Shown here: positions 1-60,617 of the stretch, piece after piece
How positions within the stretch are numbered: the stretch's first letter is position 1
Layout: every line of letters starts with the position of its first letter
Sequence record: MK509462
Direction: 5' to 3' (one strand)
From: Shigella phage MK-13
Length of the DNA: 64,000 nucleotides
Notes under the pieces: model-generated
Database searches by the model: none
The model's input: only the letters and a program-made list of their open reading frames with translations
Told to the model about the DNA's origin: nothing
Translations under genes and position numbers: made by a program

Positions 1-764
1 CCGCTATTCAAGAAACCGAAAACGCTGCCAACGTCGAGCGCCTGCGTCTGGTTGAAGCTCATCAGTCTGAGATTGCTCAGCTGAAAGAGTCTCACTTGAT
101 GGAGATCGCAACCAAAGTTGACAGCTTCCTGAACGCTGTTGTAGAAGAGTGGGCTAACACCAACGCTCCTGCAATCGATGCTCAGATCAAGCGTGAAGCA
201 GCTGAAAACCTGCTGACTGGCCTGACTGGCGTTCTGAAAGAAGCTGGTATCAACTTTGCGACTGACGAAAACGGCCAGATCGCTGCGCTGACTGCCCGCC
301 TGACAGAAGCAGAACAACGCGCTGCGGCTGCTGAAAGCGAAAACCGTCAAATCAAAGAAGCCGCGAATGCGACTCTGCGCGACTCTGTGATCGCCCGTAT
401 CTGTGAAGGCATGGTCGACACCAAGAAAGCAACGGTTGTCAATCTGCTGGAAGCGGTGCAGTTCACCACCGAAAGCGAATTCGCTTCCCGCGTACACACC
501 TTCCGCAACCTGGTAGAAGGTAAGTCCGCGAAGAAAGAAGGCGATGACGATGACGACTTCCAGGATAAAGTCGGCGGCAAAGATGGCGACGACGACAACA
601 AAGGCGACAAAGACAAAGTCGACGAAGGCAAAAAGTCTAAGAAAGAAGGCGATGACGGCGACGATGATGGCAAAGACGATGAAGATGAAACAGACAAAGA
701 GCTGAAAGAATCTATCAAGCGTCAGTTGGCCGACTATAATCGTCGCTTCGGCATCAACGGCTAA
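1..764 (+). CDS. prohead core scaffold protein, gp22-like (5' partial; reading frame opens at nt 3)
   Basis: Open frame runs to window start; coiled-coil then acidic K/D/G/E low-complexity tail; sits immediately upstream of gp23 homolog as in T4. Confidence 0.6.
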   Translation, partial: AIQETENAANVERLRLVEAHQSEIAQLKESHLMEIATKVDSFLNAVVEEWANTNAPAIDAQIKREAAENLLTGLTGVLKEAGINFATDENGQIAALTARLTEAEQRAAAAESENRQIKEAANATLRDSVIARICEGMVDTKKATVVNLLEAVQFTTESEFASRVHTFRNLVEGKSAKKEGDDDDDFQDKVGGKDGDDDNKGDKDKVDEGKKSKKEGDDGDDDGKDDEDETDKELKESIKRQLADYNRRFGING

Positions 765-2498: not shown

Positions 2499-2590
2499 TT
2501 CCTTTATCGTGTCGATTTAATACCCGCGTTGTTCAATACACCTGCCTGTTGTATGCTTGTACAGTCAACCATACAACAGGAGTACAAATC

Positions 2591-2923
2591 ATGTCAAGTA
2601 ACCTCGTATCACCAACACAATCCGTGTCCCAAATTCTGGTCAATGCTCGTTCTCATAAAGAGCGTTTGTGCAACCTCCTCACCAATATCAGAAACATCCG
2701 TATCCAACTCGACGGTGATTACCCAACCGCTCAGAAAGGTGAAGATAAAGAAATGGCCGCGCCTGGTCTGGTCGGCTCGGTGATTGACGTCCAGTCTGAC
2801 CAGGACGATATTATCGACGCTATCTTTACCCATCTGGATGTAATCCATGAAAAACTAGGCACTTCATGTCATCCAGAATGTGAAGATGGGGTTGGTTCCC
2901 AGAATATGACTTTGGCTGGATAA
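2591..2923 (+). CDS. hypothetical protein (110 aa)
   Basis: ORF with AGGAG RBS; start chosen by RBS rather than first ATG. Confidence 0.4.
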   Translation: MSSNLVSPTQSVSQILVNARSHKERLCNLLTNIRNIRIQLDGDYPTAQKGEDKEMAAPGLVGSVIDVQSDQDDIIDAIFTHLDVIHEKLGTSCHPECEDGVGSQNMTLAG

Positions 2924-2983
2924 AGAGTTTCAAAGATTGCATGATGGTATTATTACCCTCTCTATTAATCGAGGAAATCACAA

Positions 2984-3183
2984 TGAGCCTGAAAGAAGAT
3001 TCTGTAAACACCACAGTCGCCAACTCCACCTTCCGTGAGTGGCACGACGTATTGTGCAAAGTCGCGAAAAGCCAGGGTGGTTCAGCCGCCGACGCCGACG
3101 CCTGGCGTGATGATTACGAAGCGGGCAAGACCCCTCGCCAGTCTTGGGAAGATGAATGGGGTTGGGAAGAACAAGAAGGATAA
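2984..3183 (+). CDS. hypothetical small acidic Trp-rich protein (66 aa)
   Basis: ORF with GAGGAA RBS. Confidence 0.3.
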
Positions 3184-3243
3184 CAGTTTTCAATAACGGG
3201 GTGAGAGGTATTATTGCCCCGTCTACTATCCGAGGGCTGTGCC

Positions 3244-3471
3244 ATGTACCTGAAAAAGATCGTGAAGAAGCCGAAAGGTGATGTTGTCGAAGTATGTCTC
3301 ATTGAGGCTTACGTTGACTCCTGGAACAACGAGCAGCGTTACTTCATGGTCGACACGATGGTGTATGTGCCAGCCTCTCACCTGAACCGTGATTTCATCA
3401 CAACCGAAAATGTCGTCCGCTGGGAGATTGCAACGCAGTCCGATATCGACGAACATCCCATTTTGAACTGA
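3244..3471 (+). CDS. hypothetical protein (75 aa)
   Basis: ORF with GAGGG RBS. Confidence 0.35.
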   Translation: MYLKKIVKKPKGDVVEVCLIEAYVDSWNNEQRYFMVDTMVYVPASHLNRDFITTENVVRWEIATQSDIDEHPILN

Positions 3472-49415: not shown

Positions 49416-49483
49416 TACACACTCCCTCAAGTAGTTCACTTTCACTTTAAATACCTTCGCATTCATTGCGGAGGTATTTTCTT

Positions 49484-50278
49484 ATGGCCATTCTAAAACT
49501 TGGCAACCGTGGCACTGAAGTGAAGGCACTTCAGCAGAGCCTCAACAAAATCGGCTTCACCCTCGTCGCTGACGGCATCTTTGGTAAGGCAACAGAGAAC
49601 GCTGTCAAGACTGTTCAGGCGGGTGCGGGGCTTGTCATTGATGGTATTGTGGGTCCAAAGACCTCCTATGCTATTCGCAACGCCGGAGACGCCCATCAGG
49701 ATCACCTGACTGAGGCTGACCTTATCGACGCGGCCAACCAGCTGGGAGTTGACCTCGCCTCTGTGAAGGCAGTCAATCAGGTTGAATCCCGTGGCACTGG
49801 CTTCACCAAGTCTGGTAAGATCAAGACGTTGTTTGAGCGTCACATCATGTACAAGAAGATGATGGCGAAGTTCGGGCAGGCTCGGGCGAATGCTGCTGGT
49901 CAGATGTATCCAACCCTTGTCAGTCCAGTGGCAGGCGGGTACACGGGCGGCGACGCGGAGTTGGATCGACTTCACGCAGCCATCAACATCGATGAGGATT
50001 GTGCGTACGAGAGCGCTTCATACGGCCTCTTCCAGATCATGGGCTTCAACTGCCAGGTCTGTGGGTACGCCAACGCCAAGGAGATGTTCAATGACTTCCT
50101 GACGGGCGAACGTGCTCATCTGATGGCATTCGTGAAGTTCATCAAGGCCGATGCCAAGCTCTGGCAGGCTCTGAAGGACAAGAACTGGGCTGAGTTTGCG
50201 CGGCGCTATAATGGTCCGGCGTATGCCAAGAACCAGTACGACACGAAGCTCGCTGCTGCATACAAGAGTTTCAGTTAA
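49484..50278 (+). CDS. endolysin: peptidoglycan-binding domain plus N-acetylmuramidase-type catalytic domain
   Basis: N-terminal PG-binding repeat pattern (ALQ..L...GF....DGIFG..T..AV..FQ) and C-terminal ESASYGLFQIMGFN muramidase-like block. Confidence 0.7.
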   Translation: MAILKLGNRGTEVKALQQSLNKIGFTLVADGIFGKATENAVKTVQAGAGLVIDGIVGPKTSYAIRNAGDAHQDHLTEADLIDAANQLGVDLASVKAVNQVESRGTGFTKSGKIKTLFERHIMYKKMMAKFGQARANAAGQMYPTLVSPVAGGYTGGDAELDRLHAAINIDEDCAYESASYGLFQIMGFNCQVCGYANAKEMFNDFLTGERAHLMAFVKFIKADAKLWQALKDKNWAEFARRYNGPAYAKNQYDTKLAAAYKSFS

Positions 50279-56314: not shown

Positions 56315-56665
56315 ATGCAAGATTACAAAGAGTTGAGAATGCAGCTGGCAGTCCCCATACCAGACAAAGGTTTATACCAGAACCTGCAACATCTGATGTC
56401 TGAAGGGCACATGCTACCATTGCGGTCTGAGGATGGATCTCAGATCGGTTATGCCACCAGTTGCGTGGTCTACGACAAACCAGGAGACGAAGAGCGTGGG
56501 AAGGTCAGTGTCGGTTCCAGATTTGTGTTGAACAAGAAGCTGGAGGGATCAGTGGTTGACGTCAGACCGATGATTATCCTCTACCACTTCAACGGTAAAG
56601 AGATGTTCAGGTTATTGAGCCACTTTATGCTGGTCGTGGCTCCGGCATTCAGGACGAAATTCTAA
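56315..56665 (+). CDS. hypothetical protein (116 aa)
   Basis: ORF closely following upstream gene. Confidence 0.45.
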   Translation: MQDYKELRMQLAVPIPDKGLYQNLQHLMSEGHMLPLRSEDGSQIGYATSCVVYDKPGDEERGKVSVGSRFVLNKKLEGSVVDVRPMIILYHFNGKEMFRLLSHFMLVVAPAFRTKF

Positions 56666-57042
56666 TTCGTCCTTTTCAACCACACGGTGTCTGTTATTGG
56701 ATCTGGATTGTTGACCACATAGAATGTGATGGTCACACCCAGAGAATGGTAATCCTCTGACAGACTCACCGTGACTTCTTCTACCTCGGCTCGCCGTTCA
56801 TACAGAGCAATAGCATCTTCAACTTTGTTCTTCACATCTACCTGAATCGTTGGGGTGGTGTTCTCTCCAAGGAGATTATACAGCCCTGCGCCGATCCCAG
56901 GATAAGTGGGCCAGTCACCGACTGAAGACATGACGATATTCCGCACAGATTGCAAGACAGCGTATACGCCTGATTTCATGGTGACATCTTTGGTCACCGG
57001 GTGCATGCCGAACTTCAGATCGACATCTTTGTACTCTTTCAT
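56662..57042 (-). CDS. baseplate wedge protein, gp25/GPW-like
   Basis: Size and pattern (PGIGAGLYNLLGE..., ...YVVNNPDPI...) resemble T4 gp25; adjacent to gp5 homolog. Confidence 0.7.
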   Translation of the reverse strand: MKEYKDVDLKFGMHPVTKDVTMKSGVYAVLQSVRNIVMSSVGDWPTYPGIGAGLYNLLGENTTPTIQVDVKNKVEDAIALYERRAEVEEVTVSLSEDYHSLGVTITFYVVNNPDPITDTVWLKRTN

Positions 57043-57115: not shown

Positions 57116-58726
57116 TTACTCTTCGGTGCCGAAATTACCACCATTGTCTTTTAATTCTGCCTTGATATCAATCTCACCTGGTCCCGTAGGGGATGCAGGG
57201 GTTGCACCTGACAGAGAAGAAGCGCGACCAGCACCTTCGGCATATATGATGTTACCATTAATCGTCTGAGCAACCGTCAGTTTGTCGGCGATGATCTCTG
57301 TTGCCAGAATCTTAGGAACCTTCAACGTCCCGCCGACCTCCAGAGTCTCGCAGATGATGCGCAGAATATTCTGTGCTTGCAACTCAGCCAGGTCACTGAA
57401 TTTCATCAGCGCTGTACCCGCAACCACGTTGGAGTAGTTGTTGGAGTGAAGGTGATAGACCTCGCCAGTCTTGCGCTGCACTTCAGTTCCTTTGACCGTC
57501 AGGTTGTGGTCCCCGCCGACATAATAGCGCTTGTCAAACATGGTCAGGTCATAATGATCCTTCACTGACTTGTTGACGACGTCGCCGTTCGGGAGCATCT
57601 GTTTGTAGGAGCCGGACATGTGCATCCAATGAAGACGCTCACCACCAGGAGTGTCGTCCACCTCCATTATGTGACCTGCTCGGGATGCCATGACGTTGTT
57701 GTACGGGTACTTGGAGCCACCCGCTGCCGGAACCATAGTTTCGCCCGTGTTATCAATATCCTGTACGCGCCCTGTAGGAGCCGGAGTTGCCTGCTCTTTT
57801 GGGGTACGATCAGGGATAGGCTCAGACCATTTCCCGTTCTGTTGTGCTGGGGCGGCTGAAGCTGTATTCGCCGGACCAGGCCAGCGGTAGCCCAGGACTG
57901 ACGAACGGCTGAATCGGCTGACCTTCACTGAATCGGATTGGTTGCCACCGATACACCAGACATAGTTTGCATCGAACTTCTGTACAAACGCCACGTGTCC
58001 AAATGTAGGGTTGTTACCGCGCCGGAAGACTACGATAGCACCATATTGTGGCGCTGACAGTGCACTACCCCATGTAAGGTAAGATCGGGCAAGAGCGGAG
58101 CGCGTAGACGTGTATCCAGCCTGCAACATAACCCAGCCCACGAACGCCGCACACCACGACACTTCATCTTCAGAAGCACCAAGGGAGGTTGTCTTGTGAT
58201 ATTCTATAATGCGCGGGTTGTTGTTGAACTTTCCGGCGTACTCCTTGACACCCAGCTCACCACGAGCGATGGTCATCCATTTTTCAGGATCATACCCACC
58301 AACAGGTGGTTGTGGATCTGGTTGTGGTTCGTCTTCTTGTTTCACAGGAACGTCAGTGACGGCGTTGTACGCCTGACGTTCTACCGATTGAACGACCTGT
58401 CCGAGAGCCAGCGGGTTCGTGTCAGCTCCATCAGTGGGACTTGCCCCAGGCCAAGTCCAAGTGATACGCAGGTTCTGGTATGCTTCGTCAAGGGCGAACC
58501 CCATAACCTCAGTGCCAGGAATGATACCCGTTGGAGACCAACCTAAACCAGCAGAGGAGGCGTTTGAAGCAGGCATCAGTACCTTCGCCCATGGGAGTTT
58601 GTCCGTAGGCAGGAGGACGGTGTCATCAGTGTGGACGCCATAGATGCGGACGGCGACGCGCCCGTTTTGGTCTGGATCGTTGACATCTTCAACGGTGCCA
58701 TAAAACCATCTCATATTGTCTAACAT
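57116..58726 (-). CDS. baseplate central spike gp5-like with CHAP-type peptidoglycan hydrolase domain
   Basis: N-terminus MLDNMRWFYGTVEDVNDP matches T4 gp5 OB-fold start; central WCAAFVGWV...GHVAFV resembles CHAP Cys/His peptidase rather than T4 lysozyme. Confidence 0.7.
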   Translation of the reverse strand: MLDNMRWFYGTVEDVNDPDQNGRVAVRIYGVHTDDTVLLPTDKLPWAKVLMPASNASSAGLGWSPTGIIPGTEVMGFALDEAYQNLRITWTWPGASPTDGADTNPLALGQVVQSVERQAYNAVTDVPVKQEDEPQPDPQPPVGGYDPEKWMTIARGELGVKEYAGKFNNNPRIIEYHKTTSLGASEDEVSWCAAFVGWVMLQAGYTSTRSALARSYLTWGSALSAPQYGAIVVFRRGNNPTFGHVAFVQKFDANYVWCIGGNQSDSVKVSRFSRSSVLGYRWPGPANTASAAPAQQNGKWSEPIPDRTPKEQATPAPTGRVQDIDNTGETMVPAAGGSKYPYNNVMASRAGHIMEVDDTPGGERLHWMHMSGSYKQMLPNGDVVNKSVKDHYDLTMFDKRYYVGGDHNLTVKGTEVQRKTGEVYHLHSNNYSNVVAGTALMKFSDLAELQAQNILRIICETLEVGGTLKVPKILATEIIADKLTVAQTINGNIIYAEGAGRASSLSGATPASPTGPGEIDIKAELKDNGGNFGTEE

Positions 58727-59069
58727 ATTGAGTTCCGGTTGTCAAACAAGGATTTGAAGGTATTTATGCGCAGCGGATTTTGCCTTATATACTATAGGAA
58801 GCTCTGCTTCCGTTCATTTTATTTGTTATTCGATCCTATTCGCTTCGCTCATCACACCGCCTTATGCAGGCAGCACCATTCCAATGCCATGGAGGCATAA
58901 GAGCGAGGCAATAACTGTACACCTCAGAACACTCCTTGAAAAATGGTATTTTACTGACAATCTGATTCAAAATAGACGATCCCCAACAAATGACTCAGGA
59001 ACAAGCCCATTATAACAATTTCAGGTAAAGAGAGCACGCGTTAACCTGTTTTACAGTTAAGCCAATAAA

Positions 59070-59089
59070 AATCCCGCCGAAGCGGGATT
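59070..59089 (-). terminator. rho-independent terminator (minus strand)
   Basis: aatcccgccgaagcgggatt with A-run upstream on + strand, i.e. T-run downstream on minus strand. Confidence 0.6.
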
Positions 59090-59236
59090 ACTGTTTCTTA
59101 GACAACCTGACCTTGAGGGCTTCGGTTAACAAGTCAAGATGCCACGGCATCGACTCGTTGATTTCAAATATGCTATAGCCGTGTAACTTCAATTCATCAC
59201 ACATCACGAAGTAGGATAGTAAATCAGTTTCAAACA

Positions 59237-60043
59237 TTAGATGAAAATTTCATTAATGCTATTGAATTCGATCTTGTGTTCCTTACCACACTTCGGACAC
59301 TTGATTGAACTCTTGTAGTGGATGCGCGGTATTTTGTGGAAGAAGTTCTTCGTAATGCTGTCGATGACATCTGATTCGATGTTATCCTTCACCCACCCAA
59401 CAAACGCTTCTTTCACACGGCGGCGCTCGGTGGCCTCTTCCGGAGTGATCCCGATTTCTTCAGGATTCTCAACCTTCCACACCTGACCGTCATCGTCGTA
59501 CAGACAGTCGATAAAGGTGGCCAGCATCATCTCAACACTTGCAGCATCAGACAGCGCCGTAGCGTCTGAGAAGGAAGGTTGGCGCATCTTGAGGTGATAT
59601 CCGCCTGGCAGGTCAAACGTCTCCTGGAAGCCGTCCTGTGCAATGCATTTTACATTGTTCAGCGGGATAGGCAGAGTCAGTTCCTGCTCACAGGGAACCA
59701 TCTGGCGCTTTTCTTGGCCATCTCCCAGATCGATCGTTTCTTCAACCTGATTATTGCACTTGTAGCGAATCTTCATCAATTCGCCGATGGCGATCATGCG
59801 CATACGGATGAACACTTCCTCAACAACACCGATTGGCAGTTTGCTGAAAGGCGCACCTGCATTCACACACTCGCTGAAGAGGCTCTCCATCATGGCCGCG
59901 CGTTCTTCAATCGGCGTTTGCGGATCTGACACCTGAAGTAATAAAGTTTGTTGCCCCGCAGTAAAGGCGCGATATTTGATCACAGTAGGCCAAAAGTCGC
60001 TTTTATATGTCTTTTCTGTTCTGGGCAATGATGGCAAATTCAT
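59237..60043 (-). CDS. hypothetical protein with C-terminal zinc ribbon (268 aa), possibly baseplate-associated
   Basis: GGAG RBS; CPKCGKEH near C-terminus; upstream of gp5 on same strand. Confidence 0.5.
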   Translation of the reverse strand: MNLPSLPRTEKTYKSDFWPTVIKYRAFTAGQQTLLLQVSDPQTPIEERAAMMESLFSECVNAGAPFSKLPIGVVEEVFIRMRMIAIGELMKIRYKCNNQVEETIDLGDGQEKRQMVPCEQELTLPIPLNNVKCIAQDGFQETFDLPGGYHLKMRQPSFSDATALSDAASVEMMLATFIDCLYDDDGQVWKVENPEEIGITPEEATERRRVKEAFVGWVKDNIESDVIDSITKNFFHKIPRIHYKSSIKCPKCGKEHKIEFNSINEIFI

Positions 60044-60092
60044 AATGTATCTCCACGGTATATTGTAAGAGTAATTATAACGAGGAATGAAA

Positions 60093-60617
60093 ATGCGCGG
60101 ATTTTGTTTTAGTGAAATAGGCAAAGAATTGTCTATACAATATCCCGATCCCAACACAGACTTCTTTATCTTCCTGTCCGATTATGCCAAGAAAGAGAAT
60201 ATTCTCCAGGTGGCAATGAAGCACGAAGATTATAAGTTCTGTCGTCTGGGCGTCAAGGATTTATTGTCGTATGGCCTACAGGTGGTCATCGTAGACCCGT
60301 GCTACAGCCCTATCGACGATGAAGAAGTGTTGCCTGTCTATGTCCACCGCAATATTGACACCCTTGACAAAAATTATCCCGATTGTATTGTTATCGGTGA
60401 ACTCATCTCTTATTATCATCGTGGGCGAAAGCTGGAACAGATTAAAAGTTATTTTCAAGAGGGGGTTGGTCAATATAAGATGAATGCCCTCAGTAGTGGA
60501 TGGAGGGTGCTGTCTTCAGCAGGTGGTGCCGACTATATTAAGATGCGTGTCTACCAATATGTTGTGGAGCGCGATTATGAACTGGAGAAAAGTAATGCAA
60601 AACGAAAAACCCGTTGA
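60093..60617 (+). CDS. hypothetical protein (174 aa)
   Basis: GAGGAA RBS; second ATG chosen by spacing. Confidence 0.45.
   Translation: MRGFCFSEIGKELSIQYPDPNTDFFIFLSDYAKKENILQVAMKHEDYKFCRLGVKDLLSYGLQVVIVDPCYSPIDDEEVLPVYVHRNIDTLDKNYPDCIVIGELISYYHRGRKLEQIKSYFQEGVGQYKMNALSSGWRVLSSAGGADYIKMRVYQYVVERDYELEKSNAKRKTR

Follow-up and report, generated by a model that had tools for sequence, protein, structure and literature searches.

In phage T4, the central baseplate spike protein gp5 assembles with gp27 as (gp27-gp5)3 and is cleaved during maturation at Ser351/Ala352, between its enzyme and its needle. Tail-borne CHAP hydrolases that digest the wall at entry are known from Gram-positive phages, among them the Staphylococcus phage tail enzymes and HydH5. 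These virion lysins though are mounted on other carrier proteins, act on a different wall chemistry and lack the gp5 OB/beta-helix scaffold. The combination of a gp5-type spike with a CHAP-type enzyme has been known in the Ag3/CBA120 phage family since 2011. Kutter et al. 2011 (PMC3184105) reported that the CBA120 ortholog is without the usual lysozyme and that its T4 gp5-like regions, aa 3-109 and 334-437, enclose a CHAP/TIGR02594/NlpC_P60 domain spanning aa 150-282. Gp5_OB is also fused to TIGR02594/CHAP in gp060 of Rhizobium phage P10VF, which belongs to another phage family (Pootjesviridae), and in the metagenomic P0024 and P0025. At only 288-333 aa, these proteins differ in having no gp5 C-terminal needle region, and their needle is presumably a separate protein or absent. 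We rejected ICP1 'Gp5' as a third phage group with the spike architecture, as it consists of PG_binding_1 and CHAP in a non-structural context. Overall, gp5-type spikes were encountered with GH24 lysozyme, TIGR02594/CHAP, NlpC/P60 or VgrG3-like modules.

We analyzed a window of 64,000 nucleotides from Shigella phage MK-13 (record MK509462), which is ~98.6% identical to Shigella phage Ag3 (Ackermannviridae). The spike gene coincides exactly with an entry in the open reading frame list of the window, and its 58-kDa product differs from Ag3 orf00084 by one amino acid (99.8% identity). Ag3-like and CBA120 orthologs form one protein family with it at 85-99.8% identity. The gene order gp26-gp5-gp25 is common to MK-13 and the Ag3-like phages, and nothing substantial separates the Ag3-like orthologs from the MK-13 spike. 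The published domain boundaries of CBA120 are nearly equal to those found here (PMC3184105). Full-length homologs occur in 278 phage records, and all 23 full-length homolog clusters combine Gp5_OB with CHAP. Orthologs have also been recovered from virions by mass spectrometry, including ORF61 of LIMEstone1 (95% identical; PMC3296691) and the 'tail associated lysozyme' of Sajous1, which was matched as ortholog by name (PMC10892097). The gene very probably encodes the T4 gp5 ortholog of an Ackermannviridae myophage of the Agtrevirus/Ag3-like group, the cell-puncturing spike at the center of the baseplate, in which a CHAP-type hydrolase replaces the lysozyme.

The MK-13 spike resembles T4 gp5 (PDB 1K28, 1WTH) in its homologous OB domain and beta-helix start (E ~1e-14 each), in the succession of OB domain, enzyme and needle, in its baseplate context and in its presumed role as a membrane-puncturing, wall-digesting spike (Table 1). 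The two proteins differ in their centers, which is a GH24 lysozyme in T4 and an unrelated, papain-like cysteine hydrolase in MK-13. The linkers of the two spikes are not homologous either. Furthermore, the T4 gp5 lysozyme is paralogous to the endolysin gpe, whereas the endolysin of MK-13 is a muramidase unrelated to the spike hydrolase and serves as the exit enzyme of the phage.

Table 1. Positions of the spike gene, its predicted parts and neighboring features in the MK-13 window.
Feature	Position	Strand	Basis
Endolysin (PG_binding_1 + N-acetylmuramidase)	49466..50278	+	Muramidase PF11860 E 6.7e-59; PG_binding_1 E 4e-15; Ag3 annotation 'endolysin'
gp25-like baseplate wedge / sheath initiator, downstream	56662..57042	-	PHROG phrog_261, phrog_43; Pfam GPW_gp25
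Complete spike CDS (gp5 ortholog)	57116..58726	-	536 aa + TAA stop; ORF list
Remaining C-terminal region (aa 434-536), presumed spike continuation	57119..57427	-	homolog alignment
Homology to T4 gp5 C-terminal-domain start (trimeric beta-helix) (aa 338-433)	57428..57715	-	phmmer
Linker 2 (aa 283-337), Ala/Pro/Gly/Thr-rich	57716..57880	-	composition; pLDDT below 50
Conserved linker-2 motif NGKWSEPIPDRTP (aa 297-309)	57800-57838	-	homolog alignment
Predicted TIGR02594 / CHAP (NlpC/P60 superfamily) cysteine peptidoglycan-hydrolase domain (aa 150-282)	57881..58279	-	profiles, model, Foldseek
Asn262 codon (GGNQ motif), predicted third triad residue	57941..57943	-	invariance; LysPM2 N115 alignment
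His244 codon, predicted catalytic base	57995..57997	-	invariance; LysPM2 H96 alignment
Cys192 codon, predicted catalytic nucleophile	58151..58153	-	invariance; LysPM2 C47 alignment
Linker 1 (aa 95-149), Pro/Asp/Gln/Val-rich	58280..58444	-	composition; pLDDT below 50
gp5-type OB-fold domain (aa 1-94)	58445..58726	-	Pfam, T4 gp5 alignment, model, Foldseek
CATAAATA, one mismatch to the T4 late promoter TATAAATA	58761..58768	-	34 nt upstream of ATG
gp26-like baseplate hub subunit, upstream (maximal ORF)	59237..60157	-	Pfam T4_baseplate E 7.6e-45

The upstream neighbor is annotated in Ag3 as 'Gp26 baseplate hub subunit' with a shorter start. In the ~360-nt non-coding gap upstream of the spike gene, Rfam families stay below their gathering scores and sigma70-type promoters do not exceed background, and the gap has a single terminator. 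A putative late promoter has been listed upstream of orf084, the gp5 gene (Anany et al. 2011, PMC3121705), and CATAAATA, which agrees with that prediction, might represent such a promoter of the spike gene. However, ATAAATA, the core of the motif, occurs 5 times in the window where 3.5 are expected, which is no enrichment. The evidence for a late promoter is therefore weak and we make no claim.

The N-terminus of the spike is clearly of gp5 origin, as the earlier note had read it. Gp5_OB from Pfam matches aa 35-97 with E 2.9e-13 and 50.7 bits (cutoff 25). Searching the PDB by sequence aligned spike aa 3-94 to T4 gp5 aa 6-102 (E ~5e-15). The domain is modeled as a beta-barrel with pLDDT of about 76-84. 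Foldseek searches with the full-length model matched it to T4 and KP1 gp5, P2 gpV and PVC spikes, with the gp5 chains at E 1e-9 to 5e-11. The following linker 1 carries a stretch that is conserved in the homolog alignment, TNPLALGQVVQ..ERQ.YNA.

The center of the protein was claimed to be a CHAP-type domain in place of a lysozyme, and the profile searches confirm this. TIGR02594 from NCBIfam matches aa 150-282 with E 5.3e-38 and 130.3 bits (cutoff 70.55), and CHAP from Pfam matches aa 187-262 with E 8.5e-11 and 42.6 bits (cutoff 26). The Gp5_OB, CHAP and TIGR02594 matches lie far beyond chance because all exceed the curated thresholds. Pfam recognizes no lysozyme family in the spike at E<=1, and the PDB sequence search matched T4 gp5 only at aa 3-94 and 338-433, with no match in the spike center. 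Searches with the domain alone and with the family profile found no solved sequence relative of the central domain in the PDB. Matches of the family profile were discarded, as they stem from GH108/PG_binding_3 fused in bacterial relatives and not from the CHAP part.

The predicted catalytic Cys and His lie in two motifs singled out earlier for these conserved residues, WCAAFVGWV (starting at aa 191) and GHVAFV (starting at aa 243). C192, H244, N262 and Q263 are invariant in 96/96 TIGR02594-domain sequences, stand-alone endolysins included. LysPM2, the only characterized TIGR02594 relative that came up, is 37% identical to the spike domain over 137 aa (E 9e-28), and its predicted triad C47/H96/N115 aligns with C192/H244/N262 of the spike. 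In its description, N115 is equated with N110 of LysIME-EF1 (6IST), and LysPM2 is presented as a single-domain CHAP endolysin of Proteus phage PM-CJR, shown by experiment to be lytic on Proteus spp. with outer-membrane permeabilizers; Ca2+ dependence is also reported for it (PMC13461873). LysPM2 differs from the spike domain in being a stand-alone 158-aa endolysin of a holin-spanin cassette rather than embedded in a tail spike.

We built a model of the domain alone, since T4 gp5 dominated the Foldseek output of the full-length model. The domain-only model (pLDDT 87.5, pTM 0.85) places C192 at the N-terminus of helix 192-202, H244 at the start of strand 243-251 and N262 at the end of the neighboring strand 255-261. 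Structural neighbors are exclusively NlpC/P60 and CHAP cell-wall hydrolases, with PDB matches to MepS, Acd24020, Acd33800, LytE, LysIME-EF1, Ly7917 and CHAPK. The best fold matches reach TM 0.5-0.67 at E ~4e-4, and the Foldseek probability is 1.0 for MepS, Acd24020, LytE and LysIME-EF1. As modeled, the central domain is of the papain-like NlpC/P60-CHAP fold. The lack of a hydrolase fold or of the Cys and His had been named in the earlier note as grounds for abandoning its proposal, and the domain has both a predicted papain-like fold and the invariant residues.

For the spike domain, action as an amide-bond hydrolase rather than as a glycosidase is a well-supported prediction. The domain was previously proposed to cleave peptide cross-links instead of glycan bonds. 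The distinction from glycan cleavage is well supported, and the naming of cross-links is over-specific because enzymes of the CHAP and NlpC/P60 types may cut at MurNAc-L-Ala as amidases, or as endopeptidases at gamma-D-Glu-mDAP or at the D-Ala-mDAP cross-link, so that other amide bonds are possible targets. The searchable literature yielded no TIGR02594 member, LysPM2 included, whose cleavage site has been mapped. We lean slightly towards a MurNAc-L-Ala amidase or a gamma-D-Glu-mDAP stem-peptide endopeptidase, either of which would spare the cross-link itself. Among the fold neighbors, Acd24020 and LytE are presumably gamma-D-Glu-mDAP endopeptidases, which fits a DL-endopeptidase, and we take LysIME-EF1, Ly7917 and CHAPK to be CHAP amidases or endopeptidases. 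Kutter et al. call the domain type a D,L-glutamate-specific amidohydrolase (PMC3184105), and many CHAP domains are amidases according to the LysPM2 description (PMC13461873). Fold similarity at TM about 0.55 though does not extend to an assignment of specificity.

The same reservation applies to a domain that specifically cuts peptide cross-links as a MepS-like D-Ala-mDAP endopeptidase, which we consider rather unlikely. MepS (8xup_J, E 3.9e-4) leads the PDB fold matches, but the next matches score almost equally and presumably have other specificities, and a TM of about 0.55 is too low to tell which bond is cut. In addition, the domain matches the CHAP HMM and has a predicted Cys-His-Asn triad, which places it nearer to CHAP enzymes than to MepS with its Cys-His-His.

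The C-terminus of the spike was presumed earlier to be beta-helical, which is supported for one part. Spike aa 338-433 match T4 gp5 aa 385-478 (phmmer, E 1.2e-14), and the same region matches aa 385-464 of the Klebsiella phage KP1 spike (phmmer, E 6.7e-14). For aa 434-536, the monomer model has low pLDDT and no secondary structure. Testing aa 400-500 for the hydrophobic periodicity of an octapeptide beta-helix repeat gave no clear 8-residue signal, and Gp5_trimer_C from Pfam has no match to the spike at E<=1. Homology supports a beta-helix only for aa 338-433, the first half of the C-terminal region. The region ends in an LxDxGGNF motif (aa 525-532) that is invariant in the homolog alignment. 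Within linker 2, NGKWSEPIPDRTP is largely conserved and several of its positions are invariant among 11 homologs, down to 59% identity. There is a small chance that these motifs mark something novel, with the spike TIGR02594 domain having a bond specificity or a regulation that is new among phage entry enzymes, for instance through NGKWSEPIPDRTP as intramolecular plug or cleavage site, or with LxDxGGNF forming a non-PAAR tip. As such a plug or cleavage site, NGKWSEPIPDRTP would hold the hydrolase inactive up to the release of the needle, in analogy to the linker inhibition of T4 gp5 and independently evolved.

An active hydrolase is far easier to reconcile with the conservation pattern than a CHAP-like domain that has lost catalysis and serves in structure or peptidoglycan binding, or one that infection does not require. 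Such a role is very improbable given the strict invariance of Cys, His, Asn and Gln in all 96 sequences, including stand-alone endolysins, and given that, across genera, no other part of the spike is as conserved in the homolog alignment as the central domain. The homolog LysPM2 is also active (PMC13461873). That the protein is an endolysin for lysis from within, mislabeled as a spike in a reversal of the ICP1 'Gp5' case, can be set aside almost entirely: TIGR02594 domains do serve as endolysins in siphophages, adjoining the holin in Proteus phages, and ICP1 'Gp5' really is PG_binding_1 plus CHAP, but the spike protein has gp5 homology in its OB and C-terminal parts, its gene sits between gp26 and gp25, its orthologs are found in the virion proteomes of LIMEstone1 and Sajous1, and the phage has its own muramidase endolysin, with a spanin also annotated in the closely related Ag3 genome.

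For the spike carrying an active hydrolase, we suggest a role in entry modeled on T4. The N-terminal OB domain would dock on the gp27 hub, with a needle, likely trimeric and beta-helical, formed by the C-terminal region. The looped-out central module, a TIGR02594-type CHAP/NlpC-P60 hydrolase with a predicted Cys192-His244-Asn262 triad, would take the place of the T4-type GH24 lysozyme. By analogy with T4, tail contraction would drive the needle through the outer membrane and carry three copies of the hydrolase into the periplasm. There, the enzyme might act locally on amide bonds in the mDAP-type peptidoglycan, whether at MurNAc-L-Ala, in the stem peptide or at the cross-link, and thereby allow the tail tube to reach the inner membrane. 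Lysis at the end of infection would fall to the separate muramidase endolysin.

Searches of the literature on the central spike of Ackermannviridae phages found neither a cryo-EM structure nor an enzymatic assay. In about 280 Ackermannviridae genomes, 'tail lysozyme' as a database label names the wrong chemistry, and it has also reached endolysins unrelated to the spike, among them ICP1 'Gp5'. As this spike illustrates, gp5-type spikes have an interchangeable enzymatic module, which is of modest scientific value. Ackermannviridae phages are widely used in biocontrol and therapy. A cysteine hydrolase that is carried on the spike and acts on Gram-negative peptidoglycan could be of interest for enzybiotic engineering.

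The MK-13 spike gene, by sequence homology, encodes the two ends of T4 gp5 around a CHAP-type centre without a lysozyme, as Pfam, NCBIfam and sequence searches of the PDB indicate with scores far beyond chance. The N-terminus carries a Gp5_OB domain (aa 35-97, E 2.9e-13, above the Pfam gathering score). The PDB search aligned only the ends of the spike to T4 gp5 (aa 3-94 to residues 6-102 and aa 338-433 to residues 385-478, both about E 1e-14) and left the centre unaligned. The centre matches TIGR02594 (aa 150-282, E 5.3e-38, 130 bits against a cutoff of 70.55; NCBIfam), a subfamily within the NlpC/P60-CHAP superfamily, and CHAP (aa 187-262, E 8.5e-11, above the Pfam gathering score). Pfam detected no lysozyme family in the spike even at E<=1. 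The earlier note's observation of a gp5 OB-like N-terminus and a CHAP-type domain replacing the lysozyme is thus confirmed, and the motifs it recognized, WCAAFVGWV and GHVAFV, start at aa 191 and aa 243. A search of 5.8 billion proteins gave 23 clusters of full-length homologs (58-96% identity), each with both Gp5_OB and CHAP.

Features of the spike region, the separate endolysin and two comparison proteins
Feature	Nucleotides	Residues	Strand	Description
Spike gene	57116..58726		-	536-aa ORF, exact coordinates (ORF listing)
gp25-like wedge gene	56662-57042		-	Flanks spike gene, downstream
gp26-like hub gene	59237-60157		-	Flanks spike gene, upstream
Intrinsic terminator	59070-59089		-	After 49-aa ORF (59088-59237), in gap upstream of spike gene
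Linkers 1 and 2		95-149, 283-337		Low-complexity, one each side of enzyme
Linker 2 motif NGKWSEPIPDRTP	57800-57838	297-309	-	Largely conserved; enzyme-to-needle linker, no recognised domain
LxDxGGNF motif	57131-57154	525-532	-	C-terminal; no recognised domain
Separate endolysin	49466-50278		+	PG_binding_1 + N-acetylmuramidase (PF11860); unrelated to spike hydrolase
ICP1 'Gp5' (locus L002)	2752-3468			Vibrio phage ICP1_2006_D, HQ641348; between ribonucleotide reductase and PhoH genes
P10VF short OB-CHAP protein (locus L003)	2575-3441			Rhizobium phage vB_RleM_P10VF, NC_025429; Pootjesviridae

The central domain has the hallmarks of a cysteine hydrolase. Cys192, His244, Asn262 and Gln263 are strictly invariant among 96 aligned TIGR02594-domain sequences, some of them from spikes and some from bacterial proteins in which the domain is joined to PG_binding_1 or GH108. 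A confident domain model built on this alignment (pLDDT 87.5, pTM 0.85) places Cys192 at the start of a helix and His244 and Asn262 on neighboring beta-strands, a predicted papain-like arrangement. Foldseek hits in the PDB covering most of the domain were exclusively NlpC/P60 and CHAP cell-wall hydrolases (matches include MepS, Acd33800, Acd24020, LytE, LysIME-EF1, Ly7917, PlyC and CHAPK). Similarity was modest (TM 0.5-0.67, E about 4e-4), and therefore no close relative has been solved; sequence and profile searches of the PDB likewise found none. Predicted viral structures matched were CHAP, Peptidase C51, TIGR02594 and NlpC/P60 lysins. The best functional anchor is LysPM2, a 158-aa endolysin of Proteus phage PM-CJR, which was shown in 2026 to lyse Proteus in combination with outer-membrane permeabilisers (PMC13461873). 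LysPM2 is a TIGR02594 member (E 3.4e-37) and stands alone, whereas the spike domain is embedded in a tail spike. The two share 37% identity (E 9e-28), and the predicted LysPM2 triad C47/H96/N115 aligns residue-for-residue with C192/H244/N262. The papain-like model, the invariant Cys and His, the fold matches and this triad alignment together argue for a hydrolase fold with both catalytic residues in place.

The earlier note's interpretation is partly supported, being right on architecture and enzyme class and over-specific on the bond cleaved. That the spike hydrolase cuts an amide rather than a glycan bond is a well supported prediction. Peptide cross-links as the target are not supported, because the superfamily spans MurNAc-L-Ala amidases, gamma-D-Glu-mDAP endopeptidases and D-Ala-mDAP cross-link endopeptidases, and the Foldseek matches, drawn from several of these classes, score nearly equally. 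The available part of the LysPM2 report contains no cleavage-site mapping (PMC13461873). TIGR02594 function is itself a prediction in a T6SS-effector study and in Kutter et al., where it is spelt 'TIGRO2594' (PMC3184105).

The proposed beta-helical C-terminus is supported for about half of that region. Homology to the beginning of the T4 gp5 beta-helix covers residues 338-433, and aa 434-536 are only presumed to be beta-helical, since they showed no clear octapeptide periodicity and the monomer model gave no reliable structure. The defining positions of LxDxGGNF do not vary between genera, even in homologs with as little as 59% identity, and conservation of the linker 2 motif extends equally far. 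In Serratia- and Erwinia-type phages the homologs continue for ~75 residues beyond GGNF.

Shigella phage Ag3 (Ackermannviridae, Agtrevirus) shares 98.6% identity with the 14 kb around the spike gene. In the phage collection, 278 records have a homolog with coverage of at least 80% of the spike; among the matches listed, all are Ackermannviridae, with Salmonella, Escherichia, Klebsiella, Dickeya, Serratia and Enterobacter as hosts. The upstream gap (58727-59087, ~360 nt non-coding) is unusually long for a dense phage genome. It contains no Rfam family at gathering score and no sigma70-like promoter was found in it. A one-mismatch match to the T4 late promoter, CATAAATA (58761..58768, -), lies 34 nt ahead of the spike ATG; the core motif of that promoter is not enriched in the window.

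A gp5 spike with a CHAP-type centre is already known, because Kutter et al. (2011, Virol J 8:430; PMC3184105) made the same observation in CBA120. In their section 'Baseplate Lysozyme' the domain is placed in TIGR02594 and in the NlpC_P60 superfamily, with T4 gp5-like flanks at aa 3-109 and 334-437. The protein is of the same family, and the boundaries nearly coincide. Named spike orthologs span 85-99.8% identity. The searchable literature yielded no work on the structure or enzymology of an Ackermannviridae central spike. Our small additions are the connection to LysPM2, which was characterised only recently, the assignment of a Cys-His-Asn triad, the occurrence of OB-CHAP fusions without a needle, a swappable enzymatic cassette and a wrongly transferred 'tail lysozyme' label.

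The P10VF protein and the metagenomic P0024 and P0025 are Gp5_OB-TIGR02594 fusions of 288-333 aa without the gp5 C-terminal needle; a metagenomic short fusion sits on a 170-kb contig. Such spikes are either blunt or have a needle that another gene encodes. Among metagenomic gp5-like proteins, P0026 joins an OB domain to NlpC/P60 near the C-terminus, P0030 joins one to a T6SS VgrG3-like (chitosanase-like) C-terminal domain, and P0053 has a VgrG3-like/GH46 domain with no OB domain detected. The enzymatic cassette of gp5-like spikes is swappable, because other such spikes bear NlpC/P60 or VgrG3-like modules, and these three proteins indicate frequent module swapping between phage and T6SS spikes. 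Some stand-alone endolysins have wrongly received the 'gp5 ... tail lysozyme' label. One is ICP1 'Gp5' (PG_binding_1 + CHAP), which looks like an endolysin that took its name from Ackermannviridae gp5 by annotation transfer. In Pseudomonas siphophages, small TIGR02594 proteins also carry this label.

Spike orthologs are physically part of virions. LIMEstone1 ORF61, 95% identical to the spike, was found in virions by MS, and the LIMEstone1 virion also contains a gp27 homolog (PMC3296691). Kutter et al. report the Vi01 ortholog in virions (PMC3184105). Sajous1 virions contained a 'tail associated lysozyme' (20 spectra), tied to the spike family by name only (PMC10892097). On the T4 model, the OB domain would dock the spike trimer onto the gp27 hub, sheath contraction would drive the C-terminal needle through the outer membrane, and the three hydrolase domains would then locally open the peptidoglycan for the tail tube. 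No lysis enzyme was identified for CBA120 in 2011 (PMC3184105), whereas the MK-13 window clearly encodes one. It is labelled 'endolysin' in the Ag3 RefSeq record. The spike lysozyme of T4 is a paralog of its endolysin; in MK-13, in contrast, the predicted entry and exit enzymes are of different chemistry.
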